Part shown: positions 43,733 to 43,935 of the stretch, piece after piece | Numbering within the stretch: the first letter of the stretch is position 1 | Layout: each line of letters opens with the position of its first letter | The notes under the pieces: generated by a model | Databases searched by the model: none | The model's input: only the letters and a program-made list of their open reading frames with translations | Told to the model about the DNA's origin: nothing | Translations under genes and position numbers: made by a program | From: an uncultured Bacilli bacterium | GTDB taxonomy: Bacteria; Bacillota_I; Bacilli_A; RF39; UBA660 | DNA: 64,000 nucleotides | Assembly: GCA_934101865.1 (NCBI GenBank) | Contig: CAKOSA010000002.1 | Location: 17,929-81,928, forward strand | Direction: 5' to 3'

Positions 43733-43935
43733 TGCAGATAAATATAAATAAATGTAGAACTTCTACACCTAAATGTAGATAAATGTAGAACTTTTAACCC
43801 AAAATGTAGAACAATACCGCAATTTTTACATAATTTTACTCTTTTTTCTGCATTTTTACCCCTTTTTTCTACATTTTCTCCACTTTTAAGCCACTTTTTC
43901 TACATTTCTTCTACATTTCCAAATTTATTTCTACA
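43733..43935. repeat. Dyad-symmetric array of >=10 TGTAGA(A/T) / TTCTACA boxes (relaxed DnaA-box-like 9-mers)
   Basis: Forward boxes: TGCAGATAA 43733, TGTAGAA 43753, TGTAGATAA 43774 (reverse complement TTATCTACA, 1 mismatch to TTATCCACA), TGTAGAA 43784 and TGTAGAA 43805. Reverse boxes: TTCTACA 43761, TTCTGCA 43846, TTTTCTACA 43865, TTTTCTACA 43896, TTCTACA 43909 and TTCTACA 43929. Confidence 0.75.

Follow-up and report, generated by a model that had tools for sequence, protein, structure and literature searches.

The intergenic region studied here contains a dense, dyad-symmetric array of short, nearly identical boxes between the gene for a 557-aa AlbA_2/HATPase protein and that for an acidic coiled-coil protein, and the question raised by this locus is which protein would recognize the boxes. 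Two answers were offered in the preliminary description, namely a DnaA-titrating or DnaA-regulated site and an operator array, similar to iterons, of the neighbouring AlbA_2/HATPase regulator. The second was supported by comparative genomics. Arrays of the same word beside relatives of this gene in phylogenetically remote bacteria and one archaeon suggest that the boxes are most likely the docking sites of the Schlafen-type protein itself. The array is probably a cognate cooperative binding array for the winged helix of the 557-aa gene product, with an autoregulatory role as the most likely one.

The borders of the gap (stop of the coiled-coil gene at 44066 and start of the regulator gene at 43616) were as previously described, and the array of about eleven boxes was borne out as ten convergent boxes (5 + 5) with one partial inverted copy (Table 1). 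All five forward boxes were recovered on the plus strand. Five of the six reported inverted boxes are on the minus strand, and the sixth is the partial box at the local palindrome, which was itself read correctly. On the plus strand, exact copies of AAATGTAGA start at 43750, 43771, 43781, and 43802, the C variant AAATGCAGA starts at 43730, and a degenerate box AAATATAAA is located at 43740. On the minus strand, exact copies occupy positions 43868-43876, 43899-43907, 43910-43918, and 43930-43938, and the C variant occupies 43847-43855; TCTCCACTT and AGCCACTTT are degenerate lattice members among the distal-half boxes. Apart from position 6 (T/C), positions 1-9 do not vary among the ten boxes; at position 10, eight boxes have A and two have T. 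In the window, i.e., the whole 64-kb (64,000-nucleotide) stretch of DNA analyzed, 8 of the 11 exact 9-mers are concentrated in a span of 190 bp. A search of the 64 kb for the same array elsewhere gave no second copy, the other three exact 9-mers being located outside it. The 8-mer was matched 18 times in the window vs. 4.25 ± 1.95 times in shuffled sequences.

Table 1. Features of the array region and the adjacent gene (positions in the window)
Feature	Position	Strand	Description
557-aa gene	41943..43616	-	SLFN_AlbA_2, HATPase_c_4, and C-terminal winged helix
Winged-helix-coding part	41952..42179	-	Residues ~480-555; predicted fold, pLDDT 74-92
Extended -10 element TGGTACAAT	43638..43646	-	~22 nt 5' of the GTG start
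Inverted repeat TTATACTTATAATTTT / AAAATTATAAGTATAA	43694..43731		I2; perfect, 16-bp arms, 6-nt loop
Sigma-70-like promoter match TTTATA-18-TATAAT (P1-like)	43719..43748	-	10/12 consensus positions; consensus match only
Proximal half-array	43730..43810	+	Five AAATG(T/C)AGA(A/T); orientation opposite to the gene
Local palindrome GTAGAACTTCTAC	43754..43766		Full box and partial inverted box TTCTACAC; inverted repeat I15
Centre between halves	43811..43846		36 bp
Distal half-array	43847..43938	- (strand of the gene)	Five AAATG(T/C)AGAA
Distal flank	43941..43997		10.5-bp T-tract phasing continues
Intrinsic terminator of the upstream 735-aa acidic coiled-coil gene	44034..44058	-	Distal limit of the control region

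The boxes are spaced by 20, 21, 10, and 21 bp in the proximal half and by 21, 31, 11, and 20 bp in the distal half, which corresponds to lattices of 10.3 bp (Rayleigh R = 0.990) and 10.4 bp (R = 0.987), respectively; compared with random placements, the phasing of each half has a p value of ~0.002-0.004. The 10-11 bp periodicity of A/T tracts is the strongest of the whole window at the array, with a power of 7.7; the median is 0.47 and the 99th percentile 1.9. In the distal flank, TTTTCTCCACTTTT (repeat family D6) occurs a second time, at 43959-43972. The dyad of the array corresponds to inverted repeat I1, and the region folds into a long imperfect hairpin (z = -5.8). Higher-order repeats of 21 and 31 bp within the array indicate that duplication has occurred; the 31-bp repeats are just 71-84% alike, with identical boxes inside them. 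The outer limits of the array read TG...CA.

Pfam annotation of the 557-aa protein revealed SLFN_AlbA_2 (residues 20-141; 8.6e-16) and HATPase_c_4 (residues 315-402; 2.6e-15), both passing their cut-offs. The full-length AlphaFold model had pLDDT values below 50 for residues 227-443, so the C-terminal domain alone was used. It was predicted to fold as a winged helix (helix, short strand, helix, helix, and a beta-hairpin wing VGNDRNSKW), and from this model, we infer that it may be the reader of the boxes. The matches to this domain in a fold search were of a generic winged-helix kind; one was 3LMM, a member of the family, and others, with non-significant E-values of 0.02-0.05, were the centromere binders AspA and TubR. 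For the 557-aa protein, the matches in PADLOC were weak and were to Argonaute partners that bear Schlafen domains; NCBIfam offered no usable assignment, and the PDB sequence search found nothing. We assign the protein to the 'HisKinase-HTH' composition of prokaryotic Schlafens given in the available text of PMC13056530, with PF04326 (Schlafen/AlbA_2), HATPase_c_4 of the GHKL type, and a helix-turn-helix at the C-terminus. A further resemblance to that group is that the gene varies between strains and that its homologs are carried on mobile elements. According to the same text, these fusions represent 19.2% of prokaryotic Schlafens and are their second most common domain composition (PMC13056530). 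Prokaryotic Schlafens have been proposed as phage-defence effectors, and some members of the family were recently demonstrated to act in phage defence (PMC13056530; Nat Microbiol 2026); TrlG of Photorhabdus, with AlbA_2 and HATPase_c_4 domains, leads to growth arrest (bioRxiv 10.1101/2020.06.02.129163). The available text of these two sources (PMC13056530 and the bioRxiv preprint) describes no cognate DNA site or repeat array, and relative to it, the association of Schlafen-HisKinase-HTH genes with an array is a new element.

When 185,579 species genomes were scanned for three AAATGTAGA boxes by motif alone, at least 119 loci (0.85 Mb) were returned. Among the matches listed, there were two loci in which an array directly adjoins a gene of the same architecture. 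In a member of Erysipelotrichaceae (L039), five TGTAGAATAA boxes spaced by 11-12 bp end ~15 bp 5' of the ATG, and in a member of Patescibacteria (L051), four exact AAATGTAGAT boxes spaced by 10-11 bp, with a degenerate fifth, lie at most 10 bp from the stop codon. Relatives of the L039 protein (57-65% identity) extended this set. Upstream of the gene in Methanocorpusculum (L345), a 12-bp unit, CTGTAGAATAAA, is repeated about eleven times, and in three Acholeplasmatales loci (L347, L348, and L350), TGTAGAATAA / TGTATAATAA boxes flank and overlap a TTGACA-17-TATAAT promoter of the gene. Homologs 72-73% identical to the window protein have related boxes on a 10-11 bp lattice right after the stop codon, with AAAATGCAGTA / AAAATGTTGTA occurring twice in L121 and TTTTCGCAGAGATTTGCAGAA twice in L122-124. 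Two more distant relatives on viral contigs have arrays of other words: four TTTTTACACGC repeats immediately 3' of the stop (L333), and three direct and one inverted copy of TTCGGTTATAA with a near-copy TTGGTTATAAT beyond (L334). By the criteria applied, no array was detected beside the homologs in L336, L338, and L339.

In many lineages, the adjacent arrays of same-architecture genes are phased at 10-12 bp. The TG(T/C)AGA core was found again in Erysipelotrichaceae, Acholeplasmatales, Methanocorpusculum, and Patescibacteria and is constant across proteins of just 21-28% identity. Among transcription-factor families, conservation of the core at this level of protein identity is uncommon. In what is a small sample, the seven lineages with the TG(T/C)AGA core have in common the wing motif (I/V)G(S/N/T/A)(N/D)(K/R)..W/Y, which is different in the two lineages with other words. 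A control set of 98 genes was compiled from the window and from loci chosen without the motif, and an array was defined as at least three phased copies of an exact 7-mer at most 150 bp from a gene. Such arrays were found beside 3 of 9 family genes vs. 0 of 89 others (p ~5e-4, from few lineages), and a 177-kb scan gave the same picture. At the locus, three or more phased copies of one word lie beside a gene with a predicted winged helix, and in unrelated genomes, arrays accompany homologs of this gene with a higher frequency than they accompany other genes.

The three-box pattern scans became informative when the neighbouring genes were inspected. In genomes and viruses, the matches listed were nearly exclusively tandem repeats in one direction, and many were located within genes. 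Among the 198 pattern loci listed from the viral and metagenome scans (1.3 Mb), a same-architecture gene was present in none but this species itself. The convergent pattern had at least 120 matches in metagenomes, most of which represent one marine phage intergenic element and assorted AT-rich palindromes; among those listed, an AlbA_2-type gene was near none except L299, which is this species. These matches, selected by the pattern itself, were treated as look-alikes.

Between the array and the gene, the 16-bp inverted repeat touches the first proximal box, and its distal arm (43716-43731) is missing in array-less strains. The P1-like promoter match adjoins box 43750 and contains box 43730 in its spacer. 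A candidate promoter of the 557-aa gene, judged from its sequence, is the extended -10 element TGGTACAAT, which precedes the ribosome-binding site GGAGGG and does not vary among the alleles. No RNA family was detected by Rfam in the whole window.

Comparison of alleles showed that the boxes are better conserved than the spacers. Relative to the window, differences in allele L129 affect 0 of 90 positions in boxes and 6 of 131 in spacers; in allele L125, they affect 13 of 77 and 31 of 109 positions, respectively, several of the box changes in L125 being T/C swaps at position 6. In the alignments, conservation between alleles is highest over a stretch comprising most of the 36-bp centre and the innermost distal boxes. 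The number of boxes per strain is 10, 9, 8, or 1; the most abundant sister lineage has one box at the site, exact or degenerate, and the 'empty' alleles have such a box in place of 231 bp. The array (43710-43940) is one insertion/deletion difference and the gene cassette (41903-43667) another, and the 42 bp between them are also present in strains without both. Strain L330 contains the array (5 + 4 boxes), ~180 bp upstream of a fibre-gene promoter, and has no gene of the 557-aa type. Persistence of the array therefore does not require a binder encoded in cis; it could be a relic or be bound in trans, and a strict partnership of array and gene within the species was rejected.

From these sequence comparisons, we infer the 557-aa protein as the binder, its winged helix as the reader, cooperativity or wrapping, and a regulatory outcome. 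Each 10-bp box AAATG(T/C)AGAA would bind one winged-helix domain, and AAATGTAGAA DNA is a candidate target of the 557-aa protein or its C-terminal 120 residues. The boxes of each half would lie on one helix face (10.3-10.4 bp lattice) in strongly phased A-tract DNA, so that bound proteins could touch and occupy the DNA cooperatively in a proposed wrapped or bridged nucleoprotein complex, and the two convergent halves may be joined via dimerization of the ATPase domain. The most likely outcome would be tight negative autoregulation of the 557-aa gene. This would agree with the proximal boxes overlapping or abutting the promoter-like element and with the related subfamily in which boxes are placed on the core promoter itself. 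The biology of the family, insofar as the available texts report growth arrest and phage defence for relatives, also fits tight control. Several observations speak against the array as the protein's own operator: L330 has the array but no gene; array and gene cassette differ separately between strains; the homologs in L336, L338, and L339 have no array by the criteria applied; the core is the same across proteins of low identity; the conserved extended -10 promoter is ~85 bp from the nearest box in the window; L125 keeps an intact gene despite the loss of two proximal boxes and the P1-like promoter; and the array is downstream of the gene in five lineages, which is a poor fit with simple promoter occlusion. 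The array beside Schlafen-ATPase-HTH genes would likely represent a control mechanism for a toxic effector. It provides a concrete, cheaply testable target for the winged helix and a sequence signature by which such cassettes could be found and annotated, from gut Bacilli to Patescibacteria and a methanogen.

A broader proposal, which we regard as speculative and rather unlikely, is that TG(T/C)AGA arrays are the conserved 'home site' of one widespread prokaryotic Schlafen subgroup, present in bacteria and one archaeon or more. On this site, the Schlafen-GHKL-winged-helix protein would form an ATP-dependent complex that would shut off its own gene and hold a toxic nuclease inactive, on a chromosome or a mobile element, until infection or stress releases it. 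This would explain both the downstream arrays and the core conserved across such divergent proteins (~21-28% identity), and the array would then be part of a defence device and not merely an operator.

The boxes might also be sites of an unrelated host regulator, for which Spo0A is the leading named candidate. Spo0A 0A-box arrays are present at the abrB, spoIIG, and spo0A promoters and in the phi29 family of phages, and tandem 0A boxes are spaced by 10-11 bp. On low-affinity 0A-like boxes, Spo0A would control the AlbA_2 cassette or the TasA-like fibre genes, an option consistent with the position of the array in L330 upstream of the fibre-gene promoter without an AlbA_2 gene. The core TGYAGAA matches the 0A box TGNCGAA at 6 of 7 positions, with the variable base on N, and the boxes share with 0A arrays both orientations and the 10-11 bp pair spacing. 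Upstream of the sin locus in C. difficile, TGTAGAA is reported to function as a Spo0A box (PMC7643835). However, all boxes contain C4A, and no box of any allele has the canonical C; this is the change that lowers Spo0A affinity ~10-fold (PMC3485338). While G2, C4, and G5 are contacted in the 0A core, all boxes here read TG(T/C)AGAA, and their invariant AAA 5' flank lies outside that core. The arrays are not restricted to endospore-forming Firmicutes: same-core arrays with the same gene family occur in Patescibacteria and in the methanogenic archaeon Methanocorpusculum, where, to our knowledge, there is no Spo0A. The enrichment beside family genes is also unexplained by a host regulator, and we consider this explanation improbable. 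The consensus sequences of SinR, CodY, ComK, PhoP, and WalR were compared as well, and none fits all boxes.

Equally improbable is a maintenance role, in which the 557-aa protein would bind the array as the site-specific loader of a small mobile element, at an origin of the iteron type or a site resembling a centromere, the chromosomal copy being an integrated or decayed remnant. Arrays on either side of the gene are expected of a portable or circularly permuted gene and site module. Family homologs were found in mobilizable elements, beside a Mob_Pre relaxase and an AEP primase-helicase, and further ones on viral contigs; AspA and TubR, as noted, were among the non-significant fold matches. 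Plasmid initiators with winged-helix domains (RepA of pPS10 and RepE of F) use iterons and inverted-repeat operators, and their own sites serve autoregulation. The array, likened from its sequence, resembles these systems in having a winged-helix gene beside short, helically phased sites in direct and inverted copies, but it has no AT-rich unwinding element by a rep gene, replicon context, or skew change. Rep iterons are 17-22 bp long vs. 10 bp for the boxes, and Rep proteins are not known to have the Schlafen nuclease-like and GHKL ATPase-like domains, both of which are present in the 557-aa protein. In the parC site of plasmid R1, 11-bp iterons, all of them direct, are grouped in two sets of five on either side of the par promoter; ParR, which is partnered by ParM, belongs to the ribbon-helix-helix proteins. 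The 5 + 5 layout around a short centre (~36-39 bp) and the helical phasing of the array resemble parC, whose cooperative coating or wrapping and autoregulation are the proposal for the array. In contrast to parC, the halves converge, no partner gene is located at the array, and no central promoter of the parC type was seen in its centre. No rep, par, or relaxase gene is near the array in the window, and the GC skew is undisturbed there. The blastn search of the array against 72,556 plasmids found nothing, and that against phages gave one weak, unrelated match inside a Campylobacter phage gene. The Acholeplasmatales boxes are exactly on the gene's own promoter, which points to regulation.

A functionless array, produced by local duplication and inverted duplication or consisting of the adjoining ends of a degenerated transposon or MITE, is very unlikely. 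The 21- and 31-bp repeats, the variable number of boxes between strains, the TG...CA limits, and the hairpin would be compatible with such an origin, but the boxes are identical while the intervening spacers have diverged, and recurrence beside homologous genes in other phyla is unexpected for junk. For a mobile-element end, which the preliminary description had named as a refutation of its proposals, the expected dyad is present, but there was no target-site duplication or clean empty site, and the MITE reading was rejected. Apart from the same locus, no second copy of the array was detected in the window, plasmids, phages, or the pattern-scan matches listed.

The DnaA reading, according to which the boxes titrate DnaA or are regulated by it, is the least credible and was not supported. 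DnaA-box clusters outside oriC are known as the DBCs of Bacillus subtilis and datA of E. coli, and the array resembles them as a dense intergenic 9-mer cluster with a TxTxCA-like core. The claimed box TGTAGATAA at 43774-43782 is indeed one mismatch from the DnaA box, and the generic core TCTACA resembles TCCACA, but just 1 of the 10 boxes is within one mismatch of TTATCCACA, a density equal to that of the rest of the window (45 such matches, ~one per 1.4 kb). Position 6 of the DnaA box is generally regarded as an invariant C, and all ten boxes have T there; the DnaA-box 5' TT(A/T) is not conserved in the array, and three extra bases (TTT) past the box are invariant. The GC skew is negative throughout the window, without an origin-type switch. 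In addition, the array is strain-variable, being reduced to a single or degenerate box in the sister lineage. The same box arrays recur beside the same gene family in the archaeon Methanocorpusculum, for which we know of no DnaA. A false lead is thereby removed, the array most likely being neither a DnaA-box cluster nor an origin-related element.

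Two minus-strand genes border the 450-bp gap that holds the AAATG(T/C)AGA boxes: the 735-aa acidic coiled-coil gene, whose stop codon is at 44066, and the 557-aa Schlafen-type gene, whose GTG start is at 43616. The preliminary description gave the same gap limits and reported about eleven boxes with dyad symmetry and a local palindrome; this is borne out by five boxes on each strand, one partial inverted copy, and the palindrome that this copy forms. The two sets are convergent and separated by a 36-bp centre. Positions 1-9 of the ten boxes are invariant save T/C at position 6, and position 10 is A in eight boxes and T in two. 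The exact 9-mer is found in eight of the array's boxes, with just three further copies in the remaining 63.8 kb of the window, and the 8-mer occurs 18 times in the window versus 4.25 ± 1.95 in shuffles. In each half, the box centres fit a 10.3-10.4 bp lattice (R = 0.99, p about 0.002-0.004), and the 10-11 bp A/T-tract periodicity of the array region is far above all else in the window. Box phasing and A-tract bending suggest that a cooperative, wrapped or bridged complex may form on the array. The array as a whole is upstream of the conserved extended -10 element, at a distance of about 85-300 bp. The coordinates are listed in the Table.

Table. Features of the box array, its gap and other loci of the window.
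Feature	Position	Strand	Remark
AAATG(T/C)AGA boxes (n = 5)	starts 43730, 43750, 43771, 43781, 43802	+	
AAATG(T/C)AGA boxes (n = 5)	43847-43855, 43868-43876, 43899-43907, 43910-43918, 43930-43938	-	
Palindrome GTAGAACTTCTAC	43754-43766		formed by the partial inverted box copy
Terminator of the 735-aa acidic gene	44034-44058		
Promoter-like TTTATA-18-TATAAT	43748-43719		overlaps/abuts the two proximal boxes
Perfect 16-bp inverted repeat	43694-43731		
Extended -10 element TGGTACAAT	43638-43646		followed by the ribosome-binding site of the 557-aa gene
F1-like ATPase operon (alpha-like, beta-like, gamma-like subunits)	46363-51393		its end lies shortly before the 735-aa acidic gene
AAA_14/DUF4143 gene	36973-38241		PADLOC match to candidate defence family PDC-S01, E = 4.5e-120
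AAA_14/DUF4143 gene	55433-56647		

The 557-aa protein contains the SLFN_AlbA_2 (residues 20-141) and HATPase_c_4 (residues 315-402) domains and a confidently predicted C-terminal winged helix, with which the fold search returned only generic winged-helix proteins and the structural-genomics family member 3LMM. This domain set matches the 'HisKinase-HTH' composition, which makes up 19.2% of prokaryotic Schlafens, a family proposed as phage-defence effectors with fused domains as sensors (PMC13056530). For Photorhabdus TrlG, with the same two Pfam domains, growth arrest upon temperature up-shift is described in a preprint (bioRxiv 10.1101/2020.06.02.129163). Homologs with 72-73% identity are located in mobilisable elements, and their stop codons are immediately followed by related boxes with a 10-11 bp lattice spacing. 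In L121 (1621-9431), an AEP-TOTE primase-helicase is directly upstream of the homolog and a Mob_Pre relaxase further downstream; in L122 (3333-7093), the relaxase is directly downstream, and units of the latter type are inserted in three different genomic contexts. An AAA_14/DUF4143-type gene, two of which are present in the window, directly follows the Schlafen-family gene in an Acholeplasmatales locus (L347:3145-4281), and the two gene types may share a defence-island association.

A scan for three AAATGTAGA boxes, with one genome per species, yielded at least 119 loci, the listed matches being mostly unrelated one-directional repeats; in two of these loci, a same-architecture gene stands immediately beside the array. 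In Erysipelotrichaceae (L039), a 428-aa gene (SLFN_AlbA_2, HATPase_c_4 and HTH_24) is preceded by five TGTAGAATAA copies spaced by 11-12 bp, the row ending about 15 bp ahead of its ATG. In Patescibacteria (L051), four exact AAATGTAGAT copies spaced by 10-11 bp, with a degenerate fifth, are no more than 10 bp from the stop codon of a 478-aa family gene. Further relatives were fetched from the L039 protein; an Alphaproteobacteria contig, which begins 60 bp 5' of the gene, was left out of the array comparison. About eleven 12-bp CTGTAGAATAAA units precede the family gene of a Methanocorpusculum contig. In three Acholeplasmatales contigs, TGTAGAATAA / TGTATAATAA boxes flank and overlap a TTGACA-17-TATAAT promoter immediately 5' of the ribosome-binding site. 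Among relatives on viral contigs, two have arrays built from words other than that of the window: L333 has four TTTTTACACGC repeats, and in L334 three direct TTCGGTTATAA copies are joined by an inverted one, past which stands the near-copy TTGGTTATAAT; no array was seen in three others. The cross-lineage box consensus is aTAAaTG(T/C)AGAaTAAa, and the wing motif (I/V)G(S/N/T/A)(N/D)(K/R)..W/Y appears to go along with the TG(T/C)AGA core in the few lineages compared. In a set of 98 genes, drawn from the window and from loci not picked by motif, exact phased arrays no more than 150 bp from a gene end accompanied 3/9 family genes versus 0/89 others (p about 5e-4, on a basis of about a dozen lineages). 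The repeats next to the Schlafen-family gene of L333 are GCGTGTAAAAA repeats. Sequences tRNA-like by eye are close to the Schlafen-family genes in Methanocorpusculum (L345:2800-3150) and L039 (1680-1760), and a HigB/HigA-like pair (Gp49 and HTH_3) is adjacent in L039; the tRNA-like sequences and this pair suggest possible island borders.

On these sequence comparisons, the array most likely provides a set of cognate binding sites for the Schlafen/GHKL/winged-helix protein encoded beside it. The operator array for the AlbA_2/HATPase regulator, one of two options in the preliminary description, is thus favoured by the arrays beside same-architecture genes elsewhere. The overlap of boxes and promoter in Acholeplasmatales suggests autorepression. 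Because five lineages have arrays on the downstream side of the gene, the site possibly has a role beyond repression, or gene and site could form a portable maintenance module, which we consider improbable.

A rival reading is that Spo0A binds the boxes as 0A-like sites, since TG(T/C)AGAA agrees with the 0A box at six of seven positions, the variable base falling on N; however, the arrays accompany the gene family into lineages some of which, to our knowledge, lack Spo0A. A functional TGTAGAA was reported from the C. difficile sin locus (PMC7643835), but C4A, the difference present in the array boxes, cuts Spo0A affinity about 10-fold (PMC3485338).

The DNA comes from a gut bacterium that has not been cultured and is represented by metagenome contigs; alleles were retrieved via the two flanking proteins. 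The 557-aa gene is a strain-variable single-gene cassette (41903-43667) with a putative extended -10 promoter of its own and a weak terminator. L001, a mosaic elsewhere 4-12% divergent, carries the intact gene and matches the window without a difference from 41750 to 45250, so its array is uninformative on constraint. Across 35938-49616, this block and a second one of 100% identity (46250-49616) alternate with blocks of 8-14% divergence (38250-41750 and 45250-46250), which indicates that strains recombine frequently. L129 and L130 retain all ten boxes, with 0/90 box and 6/131 spacer positions changed; their gene (L129:7497-8862) has a 316-bp frameshifting deletion that removes only the Schlafen domain, and in the 431 codons left, 14 changes are synonymous and none is non-synonymous. 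L125, L126 and L299 have an intact, 97% identical gene and 5+3 boxes, two proximal ones being deleted, and several within-box changes are T/C swaps at position 6. The gene is absent from L330, where 5+4 boxes show that the array can persist without it. It is likewise absent from the most abundant sister lineage, which has one exact box (L331, L332) or one degenerate box, GGAATGTTGA (L127, L128); relative to this lineage, array (43710-43940) and cassette are separate indels, and the 42 bp that separate the two are shared. Identical boxes lie inside 21- and 31-bp units that are just 71-84% alike; together with the L129 box and spacer counts, this argues for selection on the boxes. The box-spacer contrast, the absence of a target duplication and the recurrence across phyla all tell against a transposon relic or junk.

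The other earlier option, a DnaA-titrating or DnaA-regulated site, was rejected on box sequence, offset conservation and GC skew. The box at 43774-43782 is indeed one mismatch from TTATCCACA; it is the only one of the ten within that distance, and the 64-kb window contains 45 near-matches. DnaA boxes retain C at a position that is T in 10/10 array boxes. The 5' end of the DnaA box is variable here, and the three bases past its 3' end are invariant. The skew is strongly negative, with no switch across all 64 kb. An Rfam search of the window gave no matches.

A marine phage has the array's word too, in an intergenic element that is highly conserved (L258:4670-4738 and at least about 80 other metagenome loci, including L213, L229 and L282). 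No AlbA_2-type gene was found near it among the matches listed; its neighbours match exonuclease, 2OG-Fe(II) oxygenase and small-terminase families. The element consists of a lone AAATGTAGAA, about 45 nt, three boxes, a conserved 44-nt centre (GCGGGAACCGTTGGTATT..) and two inverted boxes, and looks like an origin or regulatory region.
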